Position numbers and translations under genes: made by a program
Shown here: piece by piece, positions 9,021-59,963 of the stretch
Layout of the letters: each line of letters opens with the position of its first letter
How positions within the stretch are numbered: the stretch's first letter is position 1
Assembly: GCA_016180435.1 (NCBI GenBank)
Contig: JACPBG010000004.1
Span: 134,151 to 198,150, forward strand
Length of the DNA: 64,000 bases
Direction: 5' to 3'
Source: Candidatus Sungiibacteriota bacterium
Lineage (GTDB): Bacteria; Patescibacteriota; Minisyncoccia; Sungbacterales; HO2-52-23
Notes under the pieces: model-generated
Database searches by the model: none
Seen by the model: the letters and a program-made list of their open reading frames with translations, nothing else
What the model was told of the DNA's origin: nothing

Positions 9021-9087
9021 ACTATTTAATATATAATGTTTAATATTGGTCTTTCCCAACCAATAAATAAAATCTTAAGGAGGTTAT

Positions 9088-9702
9088 ATGAAGGGAAAAA
9101 GCGTTTTTTGGTGGGCTGTGTTGTTAGTGTGTTTATTCGTTGGGGTCGCTTCGGCCCAGGTCGACGCGCCCCAGTATAAAGAGGGTGATGCGTGGAAGAT
9201 AAAGTATAAAAGGGGGGGGGCGATTTCGAAGTCGAACGTGCTTCTTTCCGGAATTTATGATGTGGTTTATCGCAATGGCGAGTTTGTATGGTGTCCATCG
9301 CAGGACGACAAATCGATCGATAACAAACTGTGTGCTGATCCATGGACGGGATTGCTGGCCGAAGCGCTTTTTTTCGTGGGGGATTATGGTAAAGATAATC
9401 CACCTTTTTTTAGTTTTCCGATTAAGGTTGGTGATAAGCCCAGGGGTTATGAATATTTTAACCCAAATGCCGGGCGTAGTGGCATGAATTCAAACGGCAC
9501 CATCGCCGTTACGGATGTCAGCACCAAAACAAAAGCGGGTGAGTACAACGCGTATAAACACTCATTAAGTGAGAGCGGGGGTCGCACGATCCGGACATAT
9601 TACTATGTGTCAGAGTGTAAATGTGTATTGGAGTTTTCGGCTGAACTTGGGAGCGGAACAACTTACTCCGGGGAAGTTCTAGATTTTAAAGTCGCAAAGT
9701 AA
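9088..9702 (+). CDS. Secreted hypothetical protein
   Basis: Strong RBS aaggagg 7 nt upstream; signal peptide MKGKSVFWWAVLLVCLFVGVASAQ; the overlapping minus ORF 9026-9403 is judged spurious. Confidence 0.5.
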   Translation: MKGKSVFWWAVLLVCLFVGVASAQVDAPQYKEGDAWKIKYKRGGAISKSNVLLSGIYDVVYRNGEFVWCPSQDDKSIDNKLCADPWTGLLAEALFFVGDYGKDNPPFFSFPIKVGDKPRGYEYFNPNAGRSGMNSNGTIAVTDVSTKTKAGEYNAYKHSLSESGGRTIRTYYYVSECKCVLEFSAELGSGTTYSGEVLDFKVAK

Positions 9703-22742: not shown

Positions 22743-24638
22743 ATGGTAACTGATAAAAATATGCGAAGAGAAGGGGCCCCGCCATCAAATCAAAATAATA
22801 CAGATGCGCCGATCGAGAAATCGGCCGTAAGCGGAAGCGGACAAAAACCGCAGGATATTTTGGATTTGGAAAAACAAATTGCCGAATCAAGAGATAAGAT
22901 TACGGGCGGATTGCGGGGAGAGGAATTAAAAGCGGAAAGCGAACGGCTCGTGGCACTGGTACGTGCCAAAAAAGAAAAAGAATCAAGCGGAGTACCTGCT
23001 AAAGAAAATATCCAGTCGTCCGCAGAAATAGGAGAGAAAGATAAGGGCCAAACTCCGGCATCCAAAAAGACGCGGAAGAAAAAGAAGGCAACTGCGGATG
23101 CCGAAACAGTGGAATCCGAAAAGACGCCTAAAGTCCCGGCTAACGAATTGGTAGAGAATGCGGCTCAAGAAACCGCCTCTAAAGTTAAAATTAAATTAGG
23201 CGAAAACGATTTGGCTAAAAAAGAAGTGGAAAAAAGGCAAGAACAATTTGCCGAAAATTTAAAAGAATTTTTGCGTAAAAATCCACGCGAACGGGATAAG
23301 GCCGAAGTTTATGAAGGATTAGCCAAGTCGTTCAATTATGATGCGGAGAAAATATTAGCAGCCACAGACGCCTTTGATGAAACGGGGGGTGTGATGGCCA
23401 AACGAAGAAAAGGCGCATATAAAGATGTGTTCACGATGCTGGGTGGAACATCCAAAGATAAAAATGCAGGAGTGGAAAAATCCGCAAAAGATAAAATTTC
23501 CGCGGATGAAAAAGAGCAACAGCCGGCTGATTTGGCCGAAGCGGTAAAAATCGATCCGGAGAAGCTTGAAAAGGAAATTGCTGAACTGAAACAGAAAATT
23601 ATCAGCGGGAAATATGCGGGCGAAGAATTAAAAACATTAAGTCAGGATCTCAAAAAACTTGTTAAGATGAGGCCGGCTGCGTCCAAACGGATTGCAGGAA
23701 AAAAAGCAGGTAAAGACACCGAAGATGCCGATGGAAAATTCAAAATATCTATGGGGGCCGGAAAATCGAAGTCGCCGCTACCGAAGGACGTGAAGACGAC
23801 GCCCGGACCGGGCGAACAGACGCCAACTCCGGCGGATACGGATACCGGAAAAATTGAAAGCATACGCACGGGTATTTTGGAAAAATATGCCGAGGGCAAG
23901 AAAGCGGAACTTACGGCGCGTAAAAAAGAGCTTGAGAAAAAAGATGCGCGAAACGCCGCGGAAAATGCGGAATATGAGGAATTGATTCGCGCCGAGCGCC
24001 TGGAGCATGTTATAAAATCACTCGCCATAATCGAGATCGGGGGAAAGCCCACCCCAGAATTCATGCAGCAATTCAGTCGTGATTTGATGAAAGCGGAAAA
24101 AGAAACGCTGGAATGGTACGAACTTCGCGGGAAAAACGAGACCCATCCGCCGGCAGAATTTTTCAGCGCCCTGATTGACCGGCTTCCCCAAGAAAGATAT
24201 CCGAAACTTCACGAATTGAAAGAAAAAAGCGGCAAGAAATTTAAGGATGTTGTGGAGAAACTGACCGATGCCCTGCATGAGCCGGATGACGAAAAATTCG
24301 AGGGGAAATTCGCCGACCTGGAGGGCAGTCAGCCGGTTTTGAAAGAGTTGCTGGGCGAGGAGGGATTGAAGCAGTTATTCAAAACGCTTCGCGGGATGGA
24401 ACATCTGCGTGTGGAGCGGGAATCCGGTGTTTTAACTCCGGAACAGGCCGAACAGCGAAGAGAAGAACTCAATCAAGCGCAAGGCCAGTTAGGATCAGCC
24501 ATGGAAAAGGCGTGGTCCATTGCCGGCCTCGTGGGTATTATGCTTTTGCTCGGATTGATTTTTATGATAATCGTGGAATTGGAAGCGATTGACTTTATGC
24601 TTAAAAAAACCAAAGGAGGGAAAGGAGGCATATTTTAA
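22743..24638 (+). CDS. Lys/Glu-rich coiled-coil protein with C-terminal transmembrane anchor
   Basis: 631 aa, extreme K/E content and heptad-like repeats, single C-terminal TM WSIAGLVGIMLLLGLIFMIIV; stop overlaps next start (ttttaaATG). Confidence 0.5.
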   Translation: MVTDKNMRREGAPPSNQNNTDAPIEKSAVSGSGQKPQDILDLEKQIAESRDKITGGLRGEELKAESERLVALVRAKKEKESSGVPAKENIQSSAEIGEKDKGQTPASKKTRKKKKATADAETVESEKTPKVPANELVENAAQETASKVKIKLGENDLAKKEVEKRQEQFAENLKEFLRKNPRERDKAEVYEGLAKSFNYDAEKILAATDAFDETGGVMAKRRKGAYKDVFTMLGGTSKDKNAGVEKSAKDKISADEKEQQPADLAEAVKIDPEKLEKEIAELKQKIISGKYAGEELKTLSQDLKKLVKMRPAASKRIAGKKAGKDTEDADGKFKISMGAGKSKSPLPKDVKTTPGPGEQTPTPADTDTGKIESIRTGILEKYAEGKKAELTARKKELEKKDARNAAENAEYEELIRAERLEHVIKSLAIIEIGGKPTPEFMQQFSRDLMKAEKETLEWYELRGKNETHPPAEFFSALIDRLPQERYPKLHELKEKSGKKFKDVVEKLTDALHEPDDEKFEGKFADLEGSQPVLKELLGEEGLKQLFKTLRGMEHLRVERESGVLTPEQAEQRREELNQAQGQLGSAMEKAWSIAGLVGIMLLLGLIFMIIVELEAIDFMLKKTKGGKGGIF

Positions 24639-25313: not shown

Positions 25314-28208
25314 ATGAGTGAAGAAGGACCAAAAAAAGAAACGCCAAAACCTCTTACTAAAGAAGAGATTGACGCATTTCTTAACGGATTTCCGAATGAT
25401 GCCCCGGCTCCAGCATCGGCTGAAGCGTCTCCTGTTGTGAATGAAAGTGAAGACGAAGAATTTGCGCGACTCGCGGAAGGTCGCCGGAATTGGAATTTAA
25501 GCAAGGATGAAACAGAACGTTTGGAAGAGTTAGAGCGGCAGAGAGCCAAAAAATCCACGGGAGCTGAAGTTACTCCAACGCCGCCGTTGATTATAAAACA
25601 AGCAATTCCTGTTTCGAAGAGTGCGGCACATCCGGATTCAATATTTTCAGGAATTTCTTCGCCTAAAAAAGACACAGAAGCGGCAGTTTCTCCGGCGCTG
25701 GCGGCTGCTACAGGACCAGAAGTTCCTCCGAAAGGATTAGAGGGGCAGAGCGTTGTACCTGATATGGGAGTGCCGACTGAACCCGGTGCGCCGCGACCTG
25801 CTCCAGAACAAGAACCCACGGAAATCGGACCGGAGAGCCGCGAAACATCACGCCTTTCCGACAAAGAACGGCTATTTGCGTATCGTATGTGGAGCGGGGA
25901 CTGGAAAGCCGCCGAAGTTCCGAAAGAAAAAGATAAACAAACTCCGGAAGCAATTGAGGCCAATGCCCAAGAGGTTTTTAAACTCCGCGGTGATGAGCTG
26001 GATGCATATGAAAAAGTATGCCGTACCCGATCGGCCCTGAAGAAACTGGAGAAAATCCGCGGAGGCGAAAAGGATTCGGGCGCCAAGGCGCGGGAAAAAA
26101 TTGAGAAAGAAAAGGAATTATTAGATGCCGAAAATAAATATCATACTGCAAAAGACGCGTATGAAAAGCGGCTGGATCGTTTCAAACTGGATTTACTTAA
26201 TGATTTTATAAAGAGCAACGAAGAAAAATTACCGGGCCTGACCAAAAAACAGCTGGCGGATGCGGCGCTTAAATGGCAGCATCAATCTTTGCTTGAAACC
26301 ATCCAAAATTTGGACGGTAATACGCGGCTGTTGGAACAGGAACGCGAAAGAAACGCGCGTGAAATTGGAATGTTGCGTAATATGTGGGAAAAATTCAATC
26401 AACTGCCGCAATGGCAAAAAGTTGCCATTGGAGTTGGAGCCGCGGGTTTGATTGGAGTAGGAACAGCCGGGTTGGGCGGAATGGTGCTGCCTTTGCTCGG
26501 ATTTTCCGCGCCAAGCAGTGTGGCGGCTTTGAGTGTAGGAGGGGTATATATGCAACGAAGGGCGATTGGCGGAACCCTGGGGGCCGGTTTGCAGGCCGTA
26601 GTGGATAAATTATTTATAAGCCGGCAATACGGTAAGGAGCGTGAAAAAGTCAGTAAAGAAGAGAAGCAGAAAACCTCCGAGAATTTAAACCAAGAGTTAA
26701 AAGATTATTTGGGAAATTGGGTGGAAGATGAGGAGAAAAAACTAAAAATGATGGAAATCGTAGATAAAGACGCCAAAGAATATCGTGCGCGCCTGGATGA
26801 TATAACGCGGCGCGAAGGCAAGACGCGCGGATGGTCGGCGCTTGCTACTGGTCTTATTGGCGGAGGATCGGTGCTCGCGTACGAGAACTGGGATAATATT
26901 GTTAATTTGTTCCAGGGAGCGCCTAAAGGAAGCGTTTTGGGCAGTGTGAATCATGATGACTTTTACGAAGCGTATCACCCTGATAAGTATAATCCGCATC
27001 CGGCCGTGCCTGCGGAGGGTGCGGCGGCCATTGAACCATCATCAGTAGAAACCGCGCAAGAAATGGGATATATTCCTTCGGAACCCTCATCCGTAGAAAC
27101 TGCCCAGGATATGCAAAATATCGGCGCTGCCATTGAGCCCTCTTCGGTAGAAACAGCGAAAGAGATGGGCACAGCGGCGCCCACCACAGAAGCTTCGGCA
27201 GCGGGCTATGACCCGCGTTTACTCGTTGACTTGGAGGGCGCGGCAACCGAGGACGCTTCTTTGGCAGATAAAGTATTTACCGTACAGGAGGGCGATTCTA
27301 TGTGGAAAATCACGCGCCAGATGGTGAAAAACGGACTAATTACCGAGGAGCAGTGGAAAGACGGTTGGCAAAATTCCATGGTGGAGATGGCCAATGGCAA
27401 AAAAGTTCCTATCCACGAATTGGGTCTGATTCATGCCGGAGATCAAGTGCGAATTTTAGAGGACACATCGGGCGGAATAGTTTTTTCCGTTGAAGATTAT
27501 CCGCATGACACGCTTAAACTTGCGGATAATGCGGGATATGCCGAATATCTGGATAAGGCCGGAAAACCCCAGCCCCAATGGCTGCAGGACGCGCTGGCCA
27601 TGAAATCAGGAGCAAAATCCGCGCTTGCAGAGCAGGGCGCGGAACTGCATGAATTGGTGCTTGCCTCGGCGTCCGATAACGCCAATGAAGTTATCCGTGG
27701 AACGCCGACATTTTTTAACGAGGCGATACGCGCGGAACTTGCCGAACAATTCGGCAATGCTACGCTTGCGCATCAGGAAGAGATGCTCGGAGAAATTGCG
27801 CTGGATCGCGCCAATATCGGGGATTTGGCAAGCGATGCCTGGGAAGACCCGGGACGCGCGCGGGATCTTGCCCGCAGTTTCAGTGAAGCATTTGGTTTTG
27901 AAAACGGATTGCGGACATCCGAGGCGTATCTTGCTAATCTGGAGGCGTTTAATACGCTTTTGCGCGATAATGAAATTTTTCCATCATATTTTAATAGGGT
28001 GAAAGATGTGCGCGTTGGAGAATTTATCGCATTGGCGAAAGGAGAAGCATCATTTGTTAATTCGCCATTCGGATATCTGCAAAATCAATTCCGGCTTTAT
28101 CCGGACAAATGGCAAAAGATCGCATCTTTTCTTGAACAATCTAAGCCCGGTCGACCGGAAAAGATGCTAACTTTGGGGAAATTTATTAAAGGCCTTGTAG
28201 GAGGATAA
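25314..28208 (+). CDS. Large multi-TM envelope protein with charged N-terminal region, 3x ~23-aa tandem repeats, LysM domain and C-terminal globular domain
   Basis: TM cluster VAIGVGAAGLIGVGTAGLGGMVLPLLGF; repeats EPSSVETAQEMG x3 (DNA 27030-27170); LysM-like FTVQEGDSMWKITRQMV...IHAGDQVRI. Confidence 0.5.
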   Translation: MSEEGPKKETPKPLTKEEIDAFLNGFPNDAPAPASAEASPVVNESEDEEFARLAEGRRNWNLSKDETERLEELERQRAKKSTGAEVTPTPPLIIKQAIPVSKSAAHPDSIFSGISSPKKDTEAAVSPALAAATGPEVPPKGLEGQSVVPDMGVPTEPGAPRPAPEQEPTEIGPESRETSRLSDKERLFAYRMWSGDWKAAEVPKEKDKQTPEAIEANAQEVFKLRGDELDAYEKVCRTRSALKKLEKIRGGEKDSGAKAREKIEKEKELLDAENKYHTAKDAYEKRLDRFKLDLLNDFIKSNEEKLPGLTKKQLADAALKWQHQSLLETIQNLDGNTRLLEQERERNAREIGMLRNMWEKFNQLPQWQKVAIGVGAAGLIGVGTAGLGGMVLPLLGFSAPSSVAALSVGGVYMQRRAIGGTLGAGLQAVVDKLFISRQYGKEREKVSKEEKQKTSENLNQELKDYLGNWVEDEEKKLKMMEIVDKDAKEYRARLDDITRREGKTRGWSALATGLIGGGSVLAYENWDNIVNLFQGAPKGSVLGSVNHDDFYEAYHPDKYNPHPAVPAEGAAAIEPSSVETAQEMGYIPSEPSSVETAQDMQNIGAAIEPSSVETAKEMGTAAPTTEASAAGYDPRLLVDLEGAATEDASLADKVFTVQEGDSMWKITRQMVKNGLITEEQWKDGWQNSMVEMANGKKVPIHELGLIHAGDQVRILEDTSGGIVFSVEDYPHDTLKLADNAGYAEYLDKAGKPQPQWLQDALAMKSGAKSALAEQGAELHELVLASASDNANEVIRGTPTFFNEAIRAELAEQFGNATLAHQEEMLGEIALDRANIGDLASDAWEDPGRARDLARSFSEAFGFENGLRTSEAYLANLEAFNTLLRDNEIFPSYFNRVKDVRVGEFIALAKGEASFVNSPFGYLQNQFRLYPDKWQKIASFLEQSKPGRPEKMLTLGKFIKGLVGG

Positions 28209-37185: not shown

Positions 37186-37190
37186 AACAG

Positions 37191-37292
37191 TGATGCCAAT
37201 CCTATGCAAATTTAATGCCAATTTAGCGAATTGCGAATATTCACATAATTAGCAATTTGTAGATTGGCATAAGATTTGTAGATTTGCATCAT
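37191..37292. repeat. Repeat family B copy 2
   Basis: tgatgccaatcctatgcaaatttaatgccaatttagcgaattgcgaat...caatttgtagattggcataag. Confidence 0.75.
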
Positions 37293-37309
37293 AATGTGCG
37301 AAGCACGAA

Positions 37310-38642: not shown

Positions 38643-38762
38643 AGATAAATTTCTAATTGCCTAATTGTCTAATTTCTAATAAAATGCCCAATAAAGAAAT
38701 TAGGAATTTAGGCCTTAGAAATTTTATTAGGTGAATTAGGAATTAGGTGAATTTTGAATTTT
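38643..38762. repeat. Repeat family A copy 2
   Basis: Near-identical to 33877-33995. Confidence 0.8.
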
Positions 38763-39812
38763 AGAGAATCTATGTTTCTCAAAACATTTTTTGTCATATT
38801 CGCCCTGATTTTATTGGTATTCTTGCCTATTTTTGCGGATGCCGCTTTAGTCCCGGAATGTACTGGGATTAAAAAAGGCGGGGCTACTGATGGCTCGGAT
38901 GATGTTCAGGTCTCTGGATATTGCACTATTTGCGATCTTTTTGTCCTTATCCAAAATATCCTGAAATTTATCTGGATTTATATTGCTTTTCCCTTGGCTG
39001 CTCTAATGTTGGTCTACGGCGGATTTATGATGCTGGTTCCGGGCGTTTCGGGCGAAAAGGGCGCGGCCTCTTTTTCCAAAGGCCGAAAGATAATTTTTAA
39101 CACTCTTATCGGGATTACCATAGTGTTTCTGGCGTGGCTCGGCATAGATACAATTATGAAAACCGTATCTTATAATAGCGGCGGCGAGTTCGGATGGTGG
39201 AATGAAATTAAATGCATTTCCGCGCCGATTACGTTTGGAGGCGGCGGAGGCGGCGGAGGCGGAGGAGGCGGAGGAGGTGGAGGCGGAGGAGGTGGAGGAG
39301 GAGGGGGCGGAGGAGGCGGAGGGGGTGGAGGACTTGGCGGTGGTCAAACCTGCAGTGGATGCGTTAAAACCGGAAATTTTCTTTTGGGTCCAAAGCCCTG
39401 TGAGGGAGCTGCATCTGGACAAATTTGTCAAGTTAATAGTGCTCTTAATGATAAGTTGGCTACTTTAAATAATTCTATTTTTGGTGAGAAGGGTTCTGGA
39501 TTTATGGTGGTTACGGAAACATGGCCGCCCGTTGGCTATTCCCCAACTAAACCCAACGGGATTCATGCGGATTCTTGTCATGGAGCGGCAACCTGTGTAG
39601 ATATGAGATGCGGATCGGGAAGTGCCGCGGATGTAAACTATTGCATTCAAAAAACACAAACAGCCGGACTTAACCCATGTTATGAAGTAAAACCGGGCGA
39701 TAAAAAGAAATTTGTTGATGCGGGCGTGCCATCTAATAGAGTAGCGGAGGTTTCGAGAATTACCGGCCCGCATTTTTCCGTATACCTTGATTCTGCGCAC
39801 GGATGTCCATAA
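38754..39812 (+). CDS. VirB2/TrbC-like pilin-type protein fused to a ~37-residue polyglycine linker and a C-terminal Cys-rich domain
   Basis: Signal peptide + two hydrophobic helices (IWIYIAFPLAALMLVYGGFMMLV ; LIGITIVFLAWLGIDTIM) as in T4SS pilins; GGN repeat DNA 39235-39345; C-terminal domain with ~12 Cys. Confidence 0.45.
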   Translation: MNFRESMFLKTFFVIFALILLVFLPIFADAALVPECTGIKKGGATDGSDDVQVSGYCTICDLFVLIQNILKFIWIYIAFPLAALMLVYGGFMMLVPGVSGEKGAASFSKGRKIIFNTLIGITIVFLAWLGIDTIMKTVSYNSGGEFGWWNEIKCISAPITFGGGGGGGGGGGGGGGGGGGGGGGGGGGGGGGGLGGGQTCSGCVKTGNFLLGPKPCEGAASGQICQVNSALNDKLATLNNSIFGEKGSGFMVVTETWPPVGYSPTKPNGIHADSCHGAATCVDMRCGSGSAADVNYCIQKTQTAGLNPCYEVKPGDKKKFVDAGVPSNRVAEVSRITGPHFSVYLDSAHGCP

Positions 39813-39986
39813 TTTCTGTTCGAAGTCCGACTTTAAACACCCCCGTCTATCTTGTTGAAAAGTCCATTTGTTCTAAATATCTCGGCATTATATCATTGAA
39901 CCATGGACTACATAACCTCCGCATTCGTCATATATGTGATGTGTTTTTACATAGTGACGGATGAATTGACGTTGCTGGATTAAGCA

Positions 39987-40087
39987 GTGATGCCAATCCT
40001 ATGCGAATTTAATGCCAATCTGGCGAATTGCGAATAAATATTAAGTTCATTCGCAATTAGTAGATTGGCATATCATTCGTAGATTAG
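39987..40087. repeat. Repeat family B copy 3
   Basis: cagtgatgccaatcctatgcgaatttaatgccaatctggcgaattgcgaat...attcgcaattagtagattggcat. Confidence 0.75.
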
Positions 40088-40121
40088 TTCGGCTATACTT
40101 CTGGTATCAGCTCCTTTTGTC

Positions 40122-40409
40122 TTGGCCAATTGCCATTCGGGCGGTTTTATCCCCAATCCCATAGCATATTGTGATTTTCCCTCGCTTTTACTGGCTATTA
40201 CCACAGCTGTACGGAATATCGGGATGGTTTTTGCGGTTCTGGCCATTGTGATTATCGGGTTTAAGTTTATCCAGGCATCGGCCGCCGGGAATGAAGGAGG
40301 AATAAAAGAGGCGCGTAAATATTTCTGGTGGGTAGTTATCGGTACTGCGATAGTGGTAGGCGCGTCGGTGATCGCCGAGGCAGTGATCAATTTTGTAAAA
40401 GGGATTTAA
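40122..40409 (+). CDS. Small VirB2/TrbC-like pilin paralog (start uncertain)
   Basis: Two hydrophobic helices MVFAVLAIVIIGF / WVVIGTAIVVGASVIA separated by a short polar loop; no clean signal peptide from the listed start. Confidence 0.35.
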   Translation: MANCHSGGFIPNPIAYCDFPSLLLAITTAVRNIGMVFAVLAIVIIGFKFIQASAAGNEGGIKEARKYFWWVVIGTAIVVGASVIAEAVINFVKGI

Positions 40410-40412
40410 ATA

Positions 40413-40515
40413 TGATGCCAATCCTATGCGAATTTAATGCCAATCTACCAATTGCGAATATTCGCATAATTCGCAATTTGCCAAATTAGCATTTCATTTG
40501 TAGATTGGCATCATT
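40413..40515. repeat. Repeat family B copy 4
   Basis: atgatgccaatcctatgcgaatttaatgccaatctaccaattgcgaat...atttgtagattggcatcattgc. Confidence 0.75.
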
Positions 40516-40560
40516 GCTTAAAAAGGTCGAATCTGAACAAATTTAATATTTCATATTAAT

Positions 40561-40902
40561 ATGTCAAAACTTATTAAATTATCAATAGCCGCATCGGTTC
40601 TTTTGCCGTTTATGGCTTCAGCAGCGGAGGTGGATACTATTATTACCACTGTAAAGAATACCGCCAATCTTATTATCGGGGTTTTGTTTATTTTTGCCAC
40701 CCTTGTATTTTTGTGGGGATTGGTGAAGTTTATTGCCAAAGCCGATGATCCTGGAGAGCGCGCCAAAGCCCGCGGTCTTATGATGTGGGGCATAGTCGGA
40801 CTTGCGGTTATGGCCGCGGCTTGGGGAATTACCCAGCTTTTGATTCAATATTTCGGGATAGGAAATGCTCCGCCAACCTTTGTGAAGCCCCCGTCTCCCT
40901 AG
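40561..40902 (+). CDS. VirB2/TrbC-like (T4SS-type) pilin paralog
   Basis: Signal peptide ...PFMASAAEV; conserved block TANLIIGVLFIFATLVFLWGLVKFIAKADDP...MWGIVGLAVMAAAWG shared with the two downstream paralogs. Confidence 0.5.
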   Translation: MSKLIKLSIAASVLLPFMASAAEVDTIITTVKNTANLIIGVLFIFATLVFLWGLVKFIAKADDPGERAKARGLMMWGIVGLAVMAAAWGITQLLIQYFGIGNAPPTFVKPPSP

Positions 40903-40993
40903 TTATTTTGTTCGCAAGACAATAGATCAATTTGTCATTTTTGGCATTTTGGGGAAGTATTATACTTCCCCAAAATGCTATCAGATCAAATTT

Positions 40994-41311
40994 ATGCGAT
41001 ATAAGCGAATTTTTGCCATTTTATTGTTGGCAGTGGCTCCGATTCTTGTTGCGGAGGCCAAAACTATCAATGACATCGTTACTTCCGTGCAAACCGGCAT
41101 AGTGAACCCGGCGATTAATTTTTTGCTTGCCGCCGCGTCCGTGGTATTTTTGTACGGCATAATCCAATATGTAATCGGGTCCCAGGGCGATCAAACCAAA
41201 TTAAATAAAGGCAAACAGATCATGTTCTGGGGAATTATCGGGATGTTCATTATGGTTTCGGCCTGGGGAATCGTGAAAATTTTATGCAATTTTTTCGAAA
41301 CATGCAGTTAA
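40994..41311 (+). CDS. VirB2/TrbC-like pilin paralog
   Basis: MRYKRIFAILLLAVAPILVAEA signal peptide; two TM helices; MFWGIIGMFIMVSAWG block. Confidence 0.45.
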   Translation: MRYKRIFAILLLAVAPILVAEAKTINDIVTSVQTGIVNPAINFLLAAASVVFLYGIIQYVIGSQGDQTKLNKGKQIMFWGIIGMFIMVSAWGIVKILCNFFETCS

Positions 41312-41449
41312 AATGTAAACCCCGTTACTTGACCGCGAGGCACTAAACCCATTGGCAAGTACGAACATCCATTACGGTAAACCTTGCGGCAGGACCGCAG
41401 GGCATTCAAGTAACGGGGTAAATCCCATTAAAATTTAGGTCGATAATCT

Positions 41450-41851
41450 ATGGGATTAGTTAATCGTATGCTTATCTTTATGGCCCATATTTATAATAAG
41501 AATTATATCCGGAGTTTTATATTTGCCGCGATTTCGCTTTTTTTGCCGCTGGCAGCGTATGCGCAGAACGTAGATGCGATAATAGGTAGTATTCGAACAA
41601 CAGCCAATCTTATCATTGCCCTGCTTTTTATTCTGGCAACATTGGTATTTTTGTTTGGATTGGTGAAATTCATTGCGAGCGCCGATGATCCTGCGGCGCG
41701 TTCCAAGTCCCACGGTCTTATGCTGTGGGGGATTGTCGGCATGGCGGTAATGGCCGCGGCTTGGGGACTCGCGTATCTTCTGGTAACCTATGTTTTTGGA
41801 GCAGGCGGGGGCCAGACGCCCACATTTGTCTCGCCACCCGCCATTAATTAA
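41450..41851 (+). CDS. VirB2/TrbC-like pilin paralog (likely start at Met 41468 or 41480)
   Basis: TANLIIALLFILATLVFLFGLVKFIASADDP...MLWGIVGMAVMAAAWG, ~75% identical to the 40561 paralog. Confidence 0.5.
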   Translation: MGLVNRMLIFMAHIYNKNYIRSFIFAAISLFLPLAAYAQNVDAIIGSIRTTANLIIALLFILATLVFLFGLVKFIASADDPAARSKSHGLMLWGIVGMAVMAAAWGLAYLLVTYVFGAGGGQTPTFVSPPAIN

Positions 41852-41855
41852 CTTT

Positions 41856-42218
41856 ATGATGCGTATTTTCCTTAAGGTTTTGGGGGTTGTTTTGTTTCTG
41901 CCTTATTTTGCATACGCCCAGACCTTTAGCCAAATTTTTAGTCGCATGGTAAACACCGCCAACCTGATTGTTGGCGCGCTTTTTATAATATCCACGGTGG
42001 TATTTTTTTGGGGAATCGTGAAATTCATAGCATCCTCGGATAATCCCCAGGAGCGCCAAAAAGCCAAAGCCATTTTGTGGTGGGGAATTATCGGAATGGC
42101 AGTCATGGCATCGGCCTGGGGACTGGCCTTTATTTTGAAAGAATATTTTCAGATCGGAAACCAACAGCCGCAATTTCTCTCTCCGCCGGCCTTAACACCC
42201 ATACCTCTGCCCGGTTAG
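41856..42218 (+). CDS. VirB2/TrbC-like pilin paralog
   Basis: MMRIFLKVLGVVLFLPYFAYAQ signal; TANLIVGALFIISTVVFFWGIVKFIASSDNP...WWGIIGMAVMASAWG. Confidence 0.5.
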   Translation: MMRIFLKVLGVVLFLPYFAYAQTFSQIFSRMVNTANLIVGALFIISTVVFFWGIVKFIASSDNPQERQKAKAILWWGIIGMAVMASAWGLAFILKEYFQIGNQQPQFLSPPALTPIPLPG

Positions 42219-42349
42219 CGGTCTTATAGAGGCTAAACCTCGGCAGTTGCTATTGAGGTTTAGCCTCGGAAAGTAAAATAGGATCTTTATTCCAGGCTAA
42301 GCCTTGACGGAGGAAGGCTTAGCCTGCAGATTCATTTTTTTTCAATTTT

Positions 42350-42406: not shown

Positions 42407-42853
42407 CTACGGCCAAAAGTATCCGCGGCGGCTGCGGTTGCGAATCCCTTCAAGGTAGTAGTGGCGGCCTGGACTGTAGCCGCTCCTATATCCGTTTTCG
42501 CAGGATTCCCGAAGGGGCAGTGATGAGTAAGATCTGCAGTAGCTCCTGTGGTCATCCCGGAACCCGTTGATTCCTCGTTGATACCCATGCTCGCGCGCAT
42601 TGTGATACACGGTACCCATGTAGTCACTCTCGCGCCGCCGTCTTCCCTCATCGCATACCGTTCGCTCCTCGCTTCCCAACGGGAAGTTGGAACAGTTTAA
42701 GATGCGATATGGATAGCCAGAACCGTATCCGTAGTTCGGGTAGCCGCCACTGTCTACTCCGAAGTCAAAAGTTCCGCGGATACACCCAGAAGTCAAACTA
42801 AGCAGTAGGGCCGCCCCCACTCTAAACAAAATAGCTCGCCAATCAACATTCAT
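42407..42853 (-). CDS. Small Gly/Tyr/Arg-rich lipoprotein
   Basis: Signal + lipobox LSLTSGC; low-complexity GYGYGSGYPYR. Confidence 0.4.
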   Translation of the reverse strand: MNVDWRAILFRVGAALLLSLTSGCIRGTFDFGVDSGGYPNYGYGSGYPYRILNCSNFPLGSEERTVCDEGRRRRESDYMGTVYHNAREHGYQRGINGFRDDHRSYCRSYSSLPLRESCENGYRSGYSPGRHYYLEGIRNRSRRGYFWP

Positions 42854-50085: not shown

Positions 50086-53000
50086 ATGAAAAAAAGATCA
50101 ACTTATTGGCTTGAAGATAACGAAAGAAGATTAAACCTATTGCGTGAACACCGACTTGACCCATGGGAAGAACTTGAGAAATTGTTTCCGGAAAAAACCA
50201 GACGTGCCATTAAACATACAATGTCCGGGTATAGAATTCGGAGGGATCGTGATAAAGTGCCTGATGCGAACGTTGGCCCACAAAAGTGGACTCAAGAACT
50301 TATTGAAGATCTCCGTGAAAATCGAAATAAGCCCTGGCCATTTCTTACAAAAAGATTCGGCTGTCGTAAACGTCAGCTGGAGAGTATTATGGGCGAAAAT
50401 GACATCCGGCGCGACCGTCTTGAAAATATCATCTGGGACGAGAATCACGAGCGGATTCTAATTGAAGCTGCGCTTGAATCTCATTCTTATAGTCCGTATA
50501 TTTCGGCGGGAAGAAAAAAACTTAGGGACATTATCATAGCAACACGCGCGAAATTAAAAGAATTAGGATTCAGGGGAAGTACAACTCATAATGCATTAAA
50601 GATGCATATACACAATTTAACGCCGGAACGAGTTGCCGCGCTTGGCTTCAAAGAGATCCTAATACCGATTATCTGGGGAAAATCCGAAAAGGGTAAAGTT
50701 GAAGAAGTAACGGTCAGGTGGTGGGAAGAACTTGAAAAATCCGACTCGGAACGGTATCAGAAGTTCAAGGATGAATTTTTGAACCGCTGGCGTTCTGATT
50801 ACCGTGTTGCCGGAAATACCAATGAGGACCTGCTTAAAGAATGGCAGGAAGCGGTAAGCGTAGACGGTTTAAAGGCCGCCGCAAGATTTTTGGGAGAAAC
50901 GCGAACTCGAATTGAAATCGTACGCGAATATAAAAGCGTGGAGGAACTAGATAAGAAGATTGACCGCCGCATGACCGAGCTTATTTACGAAAATATACTT
51001 AAGGAGGCGGGTGCTGAAGGTTTGCGGCAGCGCATTTTAATTGAATTTGCCGATGAAATTGCTAAGATCAAATTCAATTTGACTCCTGAGTATTTCGGAA
51101 AGAAGCTTGGCCGAATTTTGTGGGTTGACGAAAAGGGCGGCGCGCTTGCTACTCTGAGGGAGTTTATCGAAAAAGGAATCGTGGATAAATTTACCGAGTA
51201 CCATCGTCATATCCCTTTGGAAATGATTCAGTCCAAAGAACGGGAAGAAAGGGGTCTTACGACCGTTAAGCATCCTGCGCCCTTTGCTTCTAATTTCGTT
51301 CACGGCATCGGTCGCATTATAGGAGACGGAGATAAAGATATTCCGGAGGAAGAAATCCGCAATTTCAAACTGCCGGAAATATCTTTTGATAAGCCCCTGG
51401 AGATAGCGTTTCGGGACCCAAGAAATTTTAAGTTTGGAATCATGAGCGGTCCGCAGCTTGGTCTATTGCATACTCCTCGTATGGAGCAAAATCCAATTCG
51501 TCGCAGTTTCGCCTATGCCGAAAGAAATAAATGGGAAGCGTTTCTCCTAACAGGAATTTTTGATCTTGATATGACCAAGGCCGCGGGTCCGGTCAAGGGC
51601 CTGCGTTCTCTTTATAGCGGCAGAAATACCAACGTCAATGTGCTTGATCCCGGATATCAAGAAGTGGCGCTTGGCGTCATAAACGCGATTAAAGCCAACG
51701 AATTTACCAGCGAGATTATTTATGAAACCGCCAAAGAGGCAGCCAAAAATCTGTTGTGCGGATGGTGGAATGTTTTTATCCGTCCCGATAAGACCCCTGA
51801 ATTTTCGGGAAAAGTGTTGATTGTATTCGGTCCCAAGGAATTTGAAACCGTGATGGCCGCGGCGCATGCGGAAATCGTATTCATAACAGGACGCAAACAA
51901 GGAGAGCTTCGTGCTCTGGCAGCTGCAGCAGCACGCGCCATGAGGCGTGATGAGAAAGAAATTCGCGCGATTGATAAAAAACTTGCGGATCTGGAGCGCG
52001 ACCTTACTCGAGAAGAAGATCCGGCGGTTAAAGAAAAATTGCAAAAGACATATGAAGATCTGCGCAACACTTTAACCGAGGATAAGAAAGAAATTGAAGA
52101 ACTAAAAGCCGAATTCCGCCGACTTAAGGAACAGGAGTCGCGCACCCGCATGACTAACGTTACACCCGAAGATTGGCAGCGGTTCCATAAATTGGCACTG
52201 GCATTGATTTCTCTTCTCGTTCAACGCGCCATTCCAGGATCGCAAGTGATATCTTTGGGCGATACATTCATAAAAGTCGGACCGGAGCCAAAGGATAAAG
52301 TTCATATTGTTATCCCGGGGCATTTGCAAGTGACCGATGCGCTTCTCTCCAAATTTTGTGATTCTTATGCGTCCCTGGCGCTTTCAATGAAGATGGCGGA
52401 AACAGTTGTAATCTGCCATCCGCACGCGATTTCCTATGCCGTGACAGCGCGTGAAGTTGATGCCAAAGGAAAACGTGAATACTCCCCGCGAGTGTATGTG
52501 GCGCCAATTCTAGTGGATGGGAAATTCATGCGAGAGAAAACGAGCCAAATTGTTCGGGGCGGAGGGCATCCGATTAGGAGCGTGGTTAATCATCCCATGT
52601 TTCAGGGTGGACTCCTGGAAATTACCGCTACCAACGGTATGGTAAATGCATCTCCGGTTACGATTGAGGCACTGGGTTTTTACGAAACAATCGCGAGGCG
52701 TAAATCGCCGACTAAATATCCTACCGGTAAATACATCTGGATTATGGCTGCCACTGACCAGCATTGGGGAGGGCGCGCCAAGGAATTTTTGCGTAACCCT
52801 AGGGTTGGTAAAAGCTTGGGTATGGCCGAGGCGGTATTTTATCTTATGCATATGTCTGGTTACGGAGACGGCGACAAATTACCGCCATTCCATATGTTCG
52901 TGGTGAATGACGACCCGACTCAAGGACACCATTTTCCTGCAGAAAAAGAGCCACATCGGCACGAAATGCAGCACTATCGTTTCGAAAAAGAACTGCATGA

Positions 53001-53883
53001 ACTTCGCGGGCAAATCAAAGCAGAGAAAAATCCGCGAATACGCGAAACCCTAATTGACAAGATGGAGGCTTTCTCCAGTCGTCAAGTACGCGTGCGCGGA
53101 ACAGATTCTTATACCCGTCAGATCGACGCATTTGTGAAATGTCATATTAAGCCAAACATCGATATCTTTAGCGGAATGCTTTTGCGAAGCATTAAAGCAG
53201 GACTTAGGTTGCGTCCGGTTAGCGAATTTGAGGATTATCTTGAGGTTCCTTACGACACGTGTGATCTCGGGTTTGACAATAATGGCACGGGTAACCACGG
53301 CATAAAGACAACCGACGGGAATTTATCCGAAGGATGGTTATTCGCGGAATTCAAGAAATCGTACTTACTGGCGCGTCCGCAATGGGCCGGCCAAGAGGAA
53401 CTTCTGGATAAATATGTAAAGGGACCGGTCTTTGGAAATAAATTCATAGCTTTTGGGACAGTACAGGCATCCGGCGGCTATGAATACGCGTTTGATCTTC
53501 GCAATACCCCGGCGGCCAATGCGGTAGATTGGGGTAACACCGTTCGTCAGGGAGCAAGAATTGCGTTGCGACGAGCGAATTACTCACGCATTTTTGATGA
53601 AAAGTTTATTGTTCGGATGTCGGGCGATAAGCACTTTCTCGGGGCCTTGCTTGCCTCGTTTTTCCTGGAGTTCATGGCGCCCGCCGGAACACATACGGAT
53701 GCGTTTGGCGAGCTTGGTTTTCCGCCGAATAATACCGGAATCGTGTTTCTGGGCCTTCCCGCCGAAGGACCAAGATCCGGACCAATTCTTATCAGGCCAC
53801 TGCTCGTTCATCATTTACGCGATTATATCGAGGAACATCCTCGCTCGTTCGATTGGGAGGCATTTTTACCCAATCCATTATGA
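50086..53883 (+). CDS. Large (1265-aa) orphan protein: N-terminal tandem Myb/SANT-like Trp repeats, central coiled coil, C-terminal region with DxH / GDGD / GHH metal-site-like motifs
   Basis: W-x18-W spacing twice in first 110 aa (YWLEDNERRLNLLREHRLDPWEEL...; QKWTQELIEDLRENRNKPWPFL...); coiled coil ~aa 620-700; WIMAATDQHWGG...GYGDGDK...VVNDDPTQGHH; no Walker A. Confidence 0.5.
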   Translation: MKKRSTYWLEDNERRLNLLREHRLDPWEELEKLFPEKTRRAIKHTMSGYRIRRDRDKVPDANVGPQKWTQELIEDLRENRNKPWPFLTKRFGCRKRQLESIMGENDIRRDRLENIIWDENHERILIEAALESHSYSPYISAGRKKLRDIIIATRAKLKELGFRGSTTHNALKMHIHNLTPERVAALGFKEILIPIIWGKSEKGKVEEVTVRWWEELEKSDSERYQKFKDEFLNRWRSDYRVAGNTNEDLLKEWQEAVSVDGLKAAARFLGETRTRIEIVREYKSVEELDKKIDRRMTELIYENILKEAGAEGLRQRILIEFADEIAKIKFNLTPEYFGKKLGRILWVDEKGGALATLREFIEKGIVDKFTEYHRHIPLEMIQSKEREERGLTTVKHPAPFASNFVHGIGRIIGDGDKDIPEEEIRNFKLPEISFDKPLEIAFRDPRNFKFGIMSGPQLGLLHTPRMEQNPIRRSFAYAERNKWEAFLLTGIFDLDMTKAAGPVKGLRSLYSGRNTNVNVLDPGYQEVALGVINAIKANEFTSEIIYETAKEAAKNLLCGWWNVFIRPDKTPEFSGKVLIVFGPKEFETVMAAAHAEIVFITGRKQGELRALAAAAARAMRRDEKEIRAIDKKLADLERDLTREEDPAVKEKLQKTYEDLRNTLTEDKKEIEELKAEFRRLKEQESRTRMTNVTPEDWQRFHKLALALISLLVQRAIPGSQVISLGDTFIKVGPEPKDKVHIVIPGHLQVTDALLSKFCDSYASLALSMKMAETVVICHPHAISYAVTAREVDAKGKREYSPRVYVAPILVDGKFMREKTSQIVRGGGHPIRSVVNHPMFQGGLLEITATNGMVNASPVTIEALGFYETIARRKSPTKYPTGKYIWIMAATDQHWGGRAKEFLRNPRVGKSLGMAEAVFYLMHMSGYGDGDKLPPFHMFVVNDDPTQGHHFPAEKEPHRHEMQHYRFEKELHELRGQIKAEKNPRIRETLIDKMEAFSSRQVRVRGTDSYTRQIDAFVKCHIKPNIDIFSGMLLRSIKAGLRLRPVSEFEDYLEVPYDTCDLGFDNNGTGNHGIKTTDGNLSEGWLFAEFKKSYLLARPQWAGQEELLDKYVKGPVFGNKFIAFGTVQASGGYEYAFDLRNTPAANAVDWGNTVRQGARIALRRANYSRIFDEKFIVRMSGDKHFLGALLASFFLEFMAPAGTHTDAFGELGFPPNNTGIVFLGLPAEGPRSGPILIRPLLVHHLRDYIEEHPRSFDWEAFLPNPL

Positions 53884-58737: not shown

Positions 58738-59280
58738 TTAAAATTTTTCCGATTTAATGCCTAAAAAATGGCCGAGAAGATTTACTAAAGGGTGCAAGAT
58801 AGCAAAAAACAGCAGTCCGATAATATATATATCAGGATTAAAAATCATGTAGGTGGAGGTTAAAATAAATGCTCCCAATATCCAGTCTGTTTGATCAAAA
58901 AACCACCATGAATTTCGGGGCGGAATATCCATCTGTCTTTTGAAAAAACTTTTTACACAATCCCCGGCAAGCGCACCGAATCCAAGCAAGAATCCAAGCA
59001 GGATGAAATTTATAGACGCATAATCCAATAGGGCGTAAAAACCTATTTGATGTGCGAAGGTTTTTTCTAAATATACAACTGCGATCGAGGCAATTATTCC
59101 AAAGAAAAAACCCCGCACAGTTTTATGAGAACCAAATATTCTTTTCCCTCTAAAGTTTTTTCCTCCATCTGCAGGAAAATTTAAAAAATTAGTCTTTCGA
59201 ACAAAAACTGGTGTCATATTTGCAACACCCGCAGGAAGAAATAATAAAAATATTCCAACGATCTCATTCAAATAATACAT
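58738..59280 (-). CDS. CarS-like (CDP-archaeol synthase family, DUF46) membrane protein
   Basis: PADGGKNFRGKRIFGSHKTVRGFFFG resembles the CarS D-x-G...GKRI-G-x-KT-RG motif; 5 hydrophobic helices in 180 aa. Confidence 0.45.
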   Translation of the reverse strand: MYYLNEIVGIFLLFLPAGVANMTPVFVRKTNFLNFPADGGKNFRGKRIFGSHKTVRGFFFGIIASIAVVYLEKTFAHQIGFYALLDYASINFILLGFLLGFGALAGDCVKSFFKRQMDIPPRNSWWFFDQTDWILGAFILTSTYMIFNPDIYIIGLLFFAILHPLVNLLGHFLGIKSEKF

Positions 59281-59285
59281 AAATA

Positions 59286-59963
59286 TTATTTTTGACTTTT
59301 AAGTATACTAAAAATTTTTACGCCCCCCGCAACTAATGAAATCGAGGTGAACAATATAAATATAGCGGTGGTCACATTAAAAATATTTATACCACTTAAT
59401 GCCCACAGCATATAAAGCGCGTAAAACAGATATTTACTTCGAAAAACAATGCTCGGTGGAACACCTAATGAATTTTGATATAAGATAAAAACTATAAGTA
59501 GTGAGTAGGTATATACATAAGTCAATCCTAATAAGGAATCGAGCATTGAATAATGAATGACTGTGGCGACAACAATGACCATTCCGGTATGATCGTTAAG
59601 CATGTCGAGGAAGCTACCAGCACGACTTGATTTTCCTGTCGCTCTGGCAAGAGGTCCGTCAACACCATCAAGTAACACATGAGCAAAAAGAAAAATAATT
59701 GAAAACCATGGATTATCAATGAAAAAATAGAAAAAACCACCCAAACTAATAAAACTAACAAAAGTAAGCATATTAGGGCTTATGTGAAGCCAAATAAGCG
59801 GTTTAAGAAAAACCCGCAGTATTTTATCCCGCATCAATCGAAATCGCTCCTGATGTTTTTCTTCTTTCGAAGAAAAGTAATGAAAATTGCCAGTCATATA
59901 ATGATTGTAACATTTTTCCGACTTTAATGACGTTCCGCGCTGCAGAGCAGTGCGGGACGTCAT
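59286..59963 (-). CDS. CDP-alcohol phosphatidyltransferase
   Basis: DGVDGPLARATGKSSRAGSFLDMLNDH matches D-x2-DG-x2-AR-x8-G-x3-D-x3-D. Confidence 0.75.
   Translation of the reverse strand: MTSRTALQRGTSLKSEKCYNHYMTGNFHYFSSKEEKHQERFRLMRDKILRVFLKPLIWLHISPNMLTFVSFISLGGFFYFFIDNPWFSIIFLFAHVLLDGVDGPLARATGKSSRAGSFLDMLNDHTGMVIVVATVIHYSMLDSLLGLTYVYTYSLLIVFILYQNSLGVPPSIVFRSKYLFYALYMLWALSGINIFNVTTAIFILFTSISLVAGGVKIFSILKSQK

Follow-up and report, generated by a model that had tools for sequence, protein, structure and literature searches.

Positions 38754–42218 of the 64 kb stretch of DNA analysed here (the window), which derives from a metagenome-assembled genome of Candidatus Sungbacteria, carry six open reading frames (ORFs; g1–g6), all on the + strand. 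We interpret this locus, with a probability of about 0.7, as a Patescibacterial array of VirB2-like pilins headed by a fusion protein in which a pilin hairpin is followed by 32 glycines and a zinc peptidase of the LAS type. Besides the fusion (g1), four short pilins of the array are intact and one paralogue (g2) is clipped. An earlier note on this DNA had described a six-gene array at this place and had assigned its members to the pilins of type IV secretion systems (T4SSs) rather than to type IV pili, and both points are borne out: the six ORFs are present, five of them pass the Pfam threshold for T4SS pilins, and the g1 module, though below that threshold, is homologous to the others. The position of the array stands, but the extents of three ORFs were amended, the starts of g1, g4 and g6 moving to 38772, 40994 and 41856 or 41859, respectively. 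The genes and the parts of g1 are listed below; residue numbers for g1 follow the 352-aa form throughout.

g1: 38772–39812, + strand; fusion protein of 346 aa from ATG 38772 (alternative start TTG 38754, giving 352 aa)
g1, predicted Sec signal peptide: 38772–38843, + strand; MFLKTFFVIFALILLVFLPIFADA, cut likely after A-D-A (sequence reading and hydropathy)
g1, VirB2-like hairpin: 38940–39140, + strand; two hydrophobic helices with a K/R-containing loop between them (hydropathy; PF18895 match over aa 63–129)
g1, glycine linker: 39237–39332, + strand; 32 Gly without interruption (codons GGA 18, GGC 9, GGT 3, GGG 2), then LGGG
g1, C-terminal domain: 39351–39809, + strand; aa 200–352 (153 aa), putative zinc peptidase of the LAS/Hedgehog-DD-peptidase fold
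g2: 40122–40409, + strand; VirB2-like paralogue with both ends clipped; PF18895 33.2 bits, TrbC 19.1 bits
g3: 40561–40902, + strand; VirB2-like pilin, 113 aa; PF18895 53.0 bits; exact protein on 4 Logan contigs
g4: 40994–41311, + strand; VirB2-like pilin, 105 aa from ATG 40994; PF18895 31.3 bits (ORF 40949–41311)
g5: 41450–41851, + strand; VirB2-like pilin, 133 aa; PF18895 31.5 bits
g6: 41856–42218, + strand; VirB2-like pilin, 120 aa from ATG 41856; PF18895 42.6 bits (ORF 41790–42218)

The short pilins

By profile comparison, the short genes of the array belong to the T4SS (VirB2-like) pilin family. Two Pfam models had been named in the earlier note as a check, and they give different answers: PF18895 (T4SS_pilin; VirB2-like pilins of Patescibacteria and of the integrative and conjugative elements of Mollicutes; gathering score 26.6 bits) recognizes g2–g6, five of the six array genes, whereas the gathering score of PF04956 (TrbC/VirB2; 27.9 bits) is reached by none, the best match being that of g2 (19.1 bits, E 0.0015). 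The NCBIfam model NF045849 (pilin-like conjugal-transfer protein) gave weak matches for the short pilins. As judged by hydropathy and inspection, g3–g6 each have a signal-peptide-like N-terminus with a small-x-small end and two hydrophobic helices with a short charged loop between them, and probable signal-peptide cuts fall between ASA and AE in g3, AEA and KT in g4, AYA and QN in g5, AYA and QT in g6, and ADA and AL in g1. The combination of a signal peptide and two helices, which had been ascribed to all six genes, is thus found in g1 and g3–g6, but g2 has lost its signal peptide. A block common to three members had also been recognized, correctly: g3, g5 and g6 share it as 183-nt direct repeats of 76% and 66% identity, with 47–64% identity at the amino-acid level, and across the array as a whole the paralogues are 22–64% identical. 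The starts chosen by gene callers on independent Logan contigs are ATG 40994 for g4 (105 aa) and ATG 41856 or 41859 for g6 (120 or 119 aa), and with the latter start the overlap of g5 and g6 disappears.

The fusion protein

g1 consists of a VirB2-like module joined by a flexible linker to a distinct domain, an architecture proposed in the earlier note and confirmed here. The 346-aa product is called exactly on a Logan contig that occurs in six sequencing runs. A hidden Markov model (HMM) built from the N-terminal modules of the g1 family scores g2–g6 at E 1e-14 to 1e-18, and the g1 module is therefore homologous to the short pilins. On its outer flanks the hairpin has Cys36, Cys57-x-x-Cys60 and Cys154, and the CxxC motif, together with a PWN-x-I-x-C motif, is found again in g1 homologues. 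In all g1 has 14 cysteines, ten of which are in the C-terminal domain; the domain of ~150 aa with ~12 cysteines of the earlier description hence keeps its size (153 aa) but not its cysteine count. The glycine run, put there at ~33 residues (39235–39345), is uninterrupted as described, but numbers 32 and ends at 39332. It is unique in the family, the next-longest run of Gly among 165 members being 7. Loci and contigs that carry homologues of the fusion are referred to here by L-numbers, and in the closest relative (L025) the linker at the equivalent place is made of GGTP repeats; the tethers vary between lineages, with a median of ~43 aa from the second helix to the peptidase domain. On the 5' side of g1, positions 38645–38757 contain an AT-rich imperfect palindrome and tandem ATTAGGTGAATTAGGA 16-mers, and an independent contig (L024) starts here; this may be a promoter/operator region or another repeat.

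The C-terminal domain

The C-terminal domain has the LAS fold. In an AlphaFold2 model of pLDDT 90.7 (only 34.8 from a single sequence), a central antiparallel sheet carries helices on one face, as in the N-terminal domain of Sonic hedgehog (Shh), VanX and MepA. The structural neighbours, with their figures in brackets, are Shh (9.9 and 9.7), Drosophila Hedgehog (9.5), VanX (8.4), MepA (8.2), VanYB (8.0), LdcB (7.8), VanXYg (7.8), VanXYc (7.6), the Streptomyces albus DD-peptidase (7.3), Ply500 (6.7), LysB4 (6.7) and the T5 L-Ala-D-Glu peptidase (5.8). Foldseek returned the same set from the PDB (Hedgehog, MepA, VanXY, LdcB), and phage M15 peptidases and lysins from the viral library BFVD.

The key residues of the domain are E255, H271, C275, H276, C281, D283, Y310-E311 and H340-F-S-x-Y. 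Conservation reaches 90–100% at E255, P258, P259, H271, C275, H276, C281, D283, Y310, E311, H340, F341, S342 and Y344, and for the presumed zinc/catalytic equivalents (E255, H271, H276, D283, E311 and H340) it is 93–100% among more than 100 divergent sequences. The family profile finds the Shh N-terminal domain in the PDB at E 0.004 (hhalign E 8.9e-5), the aligned part being the stretch W-x-V-T-E-A-W-P-P...H...C-H-x-x-G-T-C-V-D, in which TE255, H271, H276 and D283 stand opposite Shh TEGW, H135, H141 and D148. In Shh numbering (PMC6027127), H276 and D283 correspond to the zinc ligands H141 and D148, H271 to H135 and E255 to E127. The H-x6-D zinc motif is present as H276-GAATCV-D283, with the His conserved at 93% and the Asp at 99–100%. 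H340 is invariant and lies on the last predicted strand within H-F-S-x-Y, which matches Shh H183-C-S-V; from this motif we infer that H340 is the third zinc ligand, equivalent to Shh H183. E311 is likewise invariant, in V-Y-E-V on a strand aligned with Shh W-V-Y-Y-E, and by motif would be the counterpart of Shh E177 (V-Y-E311-V against V-Y-Y-E177), the hhalign alignment ending one residue earlier. Of the Shh Ca2+ ligands only the equivalent of E127 (E255) is kept, D130 and D132 being replaced by Pro-Pro.

Comparison of the domain with PDB sequences by phmmer gave one chance SDR match only, and the C-terminal domain on its own retrieved no homologue in a word-indexed search. Pfam detects no SLT, lysozyme-like or CHAP domain in g1, and its resemblance to VirB1-type hydrolases is functional and positional only. 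One homologue bears the JGI name of a Cys-rich zinc finger, an identity that we rejected, the domain being predicted to be extracytoplasmic and having the LAS fold.

The fusion family and its gene neighbourhood

HMMER, run exhaustively against 1.84 billion representatives, identified at least 195 clusters of homologues, defined at 50% identity, at E<1e-3, and 52 at E<1e-10. The homologues are mostly 280–350 aa long, with the domain match at the C-terminus, and PF18895 is present in 98 of 107 aligned homologues and TrbC/VirB2 in 23 (best TrbC match 5.8e-6); an annotated family over the C-terminal domain is found in 0 of the 107. Long members, up to 1044 aa (P0068), keep PF18895 immediately before the peptidase domain. 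NCBI names members of the family 'hypothetical protein' or 'pilin'. Those homologues with a taxon label all come from Patescibacteria, as do the loci from GTDB species genomes (17 of 17; Zambryskibacteria, Nomurabacteria, Paceibacterota, Parcubacteria and 'Saccharibacteria'); two records carry the label Gammaproteobacteria, and these we take to be mislabelled.

Related loci were retrieved with the profile of a seven-sequence alignment, and the Sungbacteria genome of the window is not among them. In 8 of the 22 (L004, L005, L009, L015, L022, L023, L028 and L029), virB4 is followed two or three genes later by the fusion, next to yidC/rnpA/dnaA, the order of the cluster being unnamed genes, PrgI (VirB3), TraC-like (TrsD), VirB4, one or two unnamed genes, the fusion, and an unnamed gene of ~420–450 aa. 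This cluster is the chromosomal Patescibacterial T4SS described in PMC12102498. The closest relative of the Sungbacteria array, L025, comes from another metagenome and has the order substrate-binding protein (SBP), fusion, pilin, pilin, pilin; identities are 62% for g1, 84% for g2, 82% for g3 and 78% for the SBP.

The pilin module is also found on other C-terminal domains. L005, within a VirB4 cluster, has a second pilin-module fusion (8532–9470) beside the LAS fusion, with a 3D domain (PF06725, MltA-type wall hydrolase). In L007 (1786–3006) and L010 (8109–9224) the module is fused to C-terminal parts without a Pfam match. Because these three loci carry the module on other domains, pilin-module fusions seem to be a general theme. 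In L021 (6001–9774, GCA_040384005.1) the genes immediately before the fusion encode a Prim-Pol/AAA_25 protein and a large serine recombinase, a setting that suggests carriage of the fusion on an integrated mobile element.

Palindromic elements, hairpins and neighbouring genes

The following further features lie in and around the array.

Palindromic element (~125 nt), copy 1: 39977–40100, no strand assigned; covers the position of the g2 start codon; dG -42.6 kcal/mol, z -5.0
Palindromic element, copy 2: 40402–40525, no strand assigned; gives the last codons and the stop codon of g2
Palindromic element, copy 3: 37190–37300; intergenic
Small hydrophobic ORF (26 aa): 39903–39983, + strand; MDYITSAFVIYVMCFYIVTDELTLLD, between g1 and g2, kept in L025 (2518–2598)
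Stem-loop between g4 and g5: 41319–41419, + strand; 14-bp perfect outer arms; dG -41.5 kcal/mol, z -3.7
Two strong hairpins after g6: 42229–42330, + strand; dG -53.3 kcal/mol, z -6.1

The palindromic elements are near-perfect, with folding free energies (dG) of -38 to -46 kcal/mol over the three copies, and short-read contigs break exactly inside them. Within the array the ~125-nt element flanks g2 only, and the other intergenic hairpins are unrelated in sequence, so that the earlier picture of genes interleaved with palindromic repeats applies to g2 and its two copies but not to the remaining genes. In the Sungbacteria genome g2 lacks a signal peptide, and its ORF is preceded by an in-frame stop; the L025 orthologue is intact (122 aa, 84% identical), and comparison with it reveals that the elements have taken the place of the start codon together with the n-region of the signal peptide and, at the other end, of the last codons of g2, which for this reason may be a pseudogene. 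The earlier note further suggested that recombination between palindromes had driven the expansion of the paralogues. This view is not supported: the paralogues are old (22–64% identity), and L025 shares the order SBP, fusion, g2, g3 and has a different, unrelated palindrome at the same site. This order is kept beside a different element at 62–84% protein identity. In the window the palindromes have clipped g2 and have not created it, and they look like independent insertions rather than drivers of duplication.

A scan of the window against Rfam returned tRNAs only, with no match for the hairpins at 41319–41419 and 42229–42330, and a simple promoter/terminator scan gave background levels. The transcription unit probably ends at the hairpins after g6 (42229–42330), where the simple scan detected no terminator with a T-tract. 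The 26-aa ORF differs from its L025 orthologue by 11 synonymous and 3 non-synonymous codons and on this ground is probably a real micro-protein gene, unlisted by any annotation.

The SBP gene upstream of the array (MBI2122349.1 by exact-protein look-up, which also gave MBI2122360.1 for the IMP dehydrogenase of the window) sits in a conserved housekeeping block of the order MBL, gyrA, methyltransferase, SBP, and in L008 this block is found on the opposite side of the fusion gene. The SBP, which the earlier note had described as an orphan of sugar type directly upstream, travels with the gyrA block, and we rejected it as a component of the pilin system. On the other side of the array a convergent gene (42407–42853, - strand) encodes a protein of 148 aa with a lipobox-like LTSGC and an Arg/Gly/Tyr/Ser-rich mature part; it has no Pfam match and is conserved beside the array on Logan contigs.

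Elsewhere in the window, ORFs of 631 aa (22743–24638) and 964 aa (25314–28208), both on the + strand, have no Pfam match; both lie in a stretch with a strong purine skew (GC skew ~0.18, AT skew 0.15–0.22), and the 631-aa product is Lys/Glu-rich with a C-terminal hydrophobic anchor. A 1265-aa ORF at 50086–53883 is likewise without a Pfam match. At 58738–59963 (- strand) a CDP-archaeol-synthase-like (CarS-like, PF01864) gene, whose family of lipid enzymes is of archaeal type although the genome is bacterial, adjoins a CDP-alcohol phosphatidyltransferase gene.

Discussion

Our current working hypothesis is that each product of the array would be exported by Sec and inserted as a hairpin of two helices whose ends both lie outside. 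The positive-inside rule would place the K/R-containing loop inside, and hence the tether and the peptidase outside. The short pilins would form a membrane pool for a VirB2-like filament of the phylum's monoderm-type T4SS, and the fusion would reside in the same membrane, or be co-assembled with the pilins, with its peptidase on a flexible leash of up to ~10 nm. To our knowledge, every characterized bacterial or phage member of the LAS fold cuts peptide stems or cross-links of peptidoglycan, and by this analogy the domain most likely cleaves bacterial cell wall, its substrate being presumably the same. Such cleavage would open the wall locally for the T4SS or the pilus, and the peptidase may also act on the wall of the host at the site of contact. 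The local opening would amount to a VirB1-type role that otherwise seems absent from most VirB2-bearing Patescibacteria, the majority of whose genomes are without VirB1, for which other hydrolases may substitute (PMC12102498).

A number of observations weigh against this hypothesis. Pfam scans of the large ORFs and BLAST with proteins of Patescibacterial T4SS clusters found no VirB4, VirB6 or VirD4 in the window, which is 64 kb of a contig of 198,682 bp, in agreement with the earlier note, nor did the same scans find PrgI (VirB3) or TrsD. Proximity to VirB4, which serves as a criterion for PF18895 pilins, is seen for the g1 orthologues in eight related loci but not in the window; the linkage to a T4SS in the Sungbacteria genome itself is drawn through orthology only, and in 14 of the 22 related loci the fusion lies away from virB4. 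The pilin gene is found near virB4 in 1135 of 1948 assemblies (PMC12102498), and distant pilin arrays are therefore common. The g1 module scores 20.4 bits against PF18895 (E 5e-4, aa 63–129), below the gathering score; the profile of the short pilins finds no solved VirB2 in the PDB by sequence, and the fusion profile finds chain 8cue only, at E 0.65. As to the C-terminal domain, the strict H-x-H is missing, the residue two before H340 being Gly, Ala or Thr and not His; Pfam gives no match to the g1 domain at E<=0.01; and neither M15 nor HH_signal is among the 25 most frequent Pfam families across 108 members (E<=0.1). Because the H-x-H is lost and no M15 or HH_signal model matches, we place the domain, from its modelled fold, as a divergent and unmodelled family within the LAS superfamily, outside any named M15 family.

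A possible, though on balance improbable, alternative is that the fusion polymerizes into the filament or caps it and digests the wall of the host, as a weapon or feeding tool rather than as an assembly factor. This would fit well with the retention of a full pilin module in ~92% of members, with tethers that are long, flexible and lineage-variable (median ~43 aa), with the nearest viral structural matches, which are phage M15 lysins and tail-associated hydrolases, and with the fact that the T4SS, the pilin array and a neighbouring Hedgehog/DD-peptidase protein are essential specifically for the epibiotic growth of Southlakia epibionticum. VirB2-type helical packing, however, would have to accommodate a 150-aa globular load at the C-terminus, and the fusions bear extra Cys motifs that are absent from the short pilins and suggest a distinct, non-polymerizing role. 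Moreover, the slot directly after virB4 is where monoderm T4SSs hold their own wall hydrolases (PMC12102498). More doubtful again is a 'drilling pilus', in which LAS and, in some genomes, 3D (MltA-like) pilin fusions would co-polymerize with or cap the short pilins and bring hydrolases to the host wall; if it existed, the essential T4SS, which has no relaxase, would gain a route for the uptake or injection of material, and how far the enzyme reaches would depend on the tether, which varies between lineages (here 32 Gly).

In the earlier note the Cys-rich domain was a candidate for a tip adhesin or a module that binds a receptor, held out on a flexible linker, a reading in which it would not be an enzyme. 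The domain is indeed predicted to be extracytoplasmic, tethered and Cys-stabilized, but the presumed equivalents of the Shh/M15 zinc ligands, general base and H135 are 93–100% conserved in more than 100 sequences, a pattern like that of catalysis, and the other structural neighbours are all peptidoglycan peptidases, so that we consider an adhesin unlikely; given the LAS fold with conserved putative zinc-ligand and catalytic residues, an enzyme is the better reading. It is less likely still that the locus has no tie to a T4SS, g1 being a housekeeping membrane-anchored DD/LD-carboxypeptidase with a pilin-resembling anchor and the small genes encoding generic membrane proteins. The window without a T4SS ATPase, the 14 of 22 related loci that are also away from virB4, and the literature searched, in which no PF18895 protein is reported to polymerize and the family is not linked to an observed filament, would all be consistent with this; it is contradicted by the PF18895 scores above the gathering threshold and the TrbC matches in 23 homologues, by the conserved slot of the fusion in the PrgI–TrsD–VirB4 cluster of eight loci from several classes, and by the essential pilin array inside the T4SS locus of S. 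epibionticum. Finally, the earlier note had considered that the glycine run might be an artefact of assembly in low-complexity sequence, which would make the fusion an erroneous join of two genes. Homopolymers of GGN are indeed difficult to assemble, and nearby repeats do break the short-read contigs, but this explanation can be dismissed almost entirely, since a Logan contig from six runs equals window positions 38734–40009 base for base over 1276 bp including the whole tract, the codons of the tract are mixed and its length is only 96 nt, more than 100 homologues share the two-domain layout with other linkers, and the closest relative has its GGTP repeats at the same place.

A large part of bacterial diversity belongs to the Patescibacteria, whose lifestyle is one of attachment to other microbes. 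In the sole genetically tractable species, the T4SS and a pilin array are essential for this lifestyle. If the array is read as pilins headed by a wall-cutting fusion, the fusion family would be a plausible candidate for the missing wall hydrolase of the Patescibacterial T4SS. The family is large and unannotated, composed of pilin-anchored LAS peptidases without a Pfam model for the catalytic domain, and would add a divergent bacterial branch to the Hedgehog/DD-peptidase fold. Since PF18895 detects the N-terminus of the fusion, many counts of 'VirB2 near virB4' probably include this enzyme and not a structural pilin. H276, D283, E311 and H340 offer mutable targets for the study of how Patescibacteria breach their own wall or that of the host.

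Comparison with known systems

Arrays of this kind are a published phenomenon. VirB2-like arrays of 2–11 genes occur in 383 Patescibacteria assemblies, with an average identity among array members of ~25% and a maximum of 54%, and it has been suggested that the divergence of the pilins may serve host range (Quinonero-Coronel et al. 2025, PMC12102498). S. epibionticum cannot grow as an epibiont without its six-gene array SEML1_0014–0019 (Wang et al. 2023, PMC10633639). Like these, the array of the window is chromosomal, belongs to the same phylum, has no relaxase nearby and is made of tandem PF18895 genes of ~100–135 aa with low paralogue identity (here 22–64%). It differs in having no virB4 within 25 kb on one side and 38 kb on the other, in that one member is clipped by palindromic elements, and in the pilin-peptidase fusion at its head, which is not described in the main text of those papers. 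In the literature searched, we found no description of the pilin-module fusion, of the breadth of its family or of its confusion with plain pilins.

A Hedgehog/DD-peptidase domain in a Patescibacterial T4SS is already on record. SEML1_0007 (1113 aa) adjoins VirB4 (SEML1_0008), is essential, and has an ECOD 'Hedgehog/DD-peptidase' domain at residues 951–1105 (PMC10633639 Table S2); beside it, SEML1_0006 combines lysozyme-like and Cys proteinase domains (PMC10633639 supplements). g1 and SEML1_0007 share the fold class of the C-terminal domain and the phylum, and SEML1_0007 lies directly downstream of virB4, as do the fusions in L022, L023, L028 and L029; its size and layout are comparable to those of long family members such as P0068 (1044 aa). 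g1, in contrast, has only 346 aa and its pilin hairpin near the N-terminus.

Among LAS peptidases (the Shh N-terminal domain, VanX/VanY/VanXY of M15, MepA of M74, LdcB, the Streptomyces albus DD-peptidase, Ply500 and T5), the g1 domain shares the H-x6-D motif, the His on the C-terminal strand (HFSV in g1, HCSV in Shh) and, by motif, the Glu on the preceding strand (VYEV in g1, VYYES in Shh). Identity is 9–22%, however, and the domain falls outside the Pfam M15 and HH_signal models; the first His of H-x-H is Gly or Ala in the g1 family, ~22 extra residues separate the Glu strand from the last His strand, and conserved Cys pairs (C275/C281; CxxC...C...C at the start of the domain) and the fusion to a pilin hairpin set it apart. 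The Hedgehog/DD-peptidase family sensu stricto is defined by H-x6-D, H-x-H and Ca2+ sites (Roelink 2018), and g1 lacks the H-x-H and the full acidic Ca2+ set.

The VirB1-type hydrolases (PrgK, TraG of pIP501, TcpG and TrsG/CD419, with SLT and CHAP domains) resemble the fusion, in the reading proposed here, as membrane-anchored extracytoplasmic hydrolases inside a T4SS cluster that are proposed to open peptidoglycan for the channel; the fusion is non-homologous to them, a putative LAS metallopeptidase with a VirB2-like hairpin as its anchor. The TrbC/VirB2 pilins of diderms (PF04956; the T-pilin, RP4 TrbC and pKM101 TraM) differ from the array proteins in their diderm host, the latter being monoderm, below the PF04956 gathering score and without a sequence match to a solved VirB2, yet the two groups have in common a long signal peptide, two hydrophobic helices and a short basic loop, together with weak PF04956 matches in g2 (E 0.0015) and in 23 fusion homologues (best 5.8e-6).

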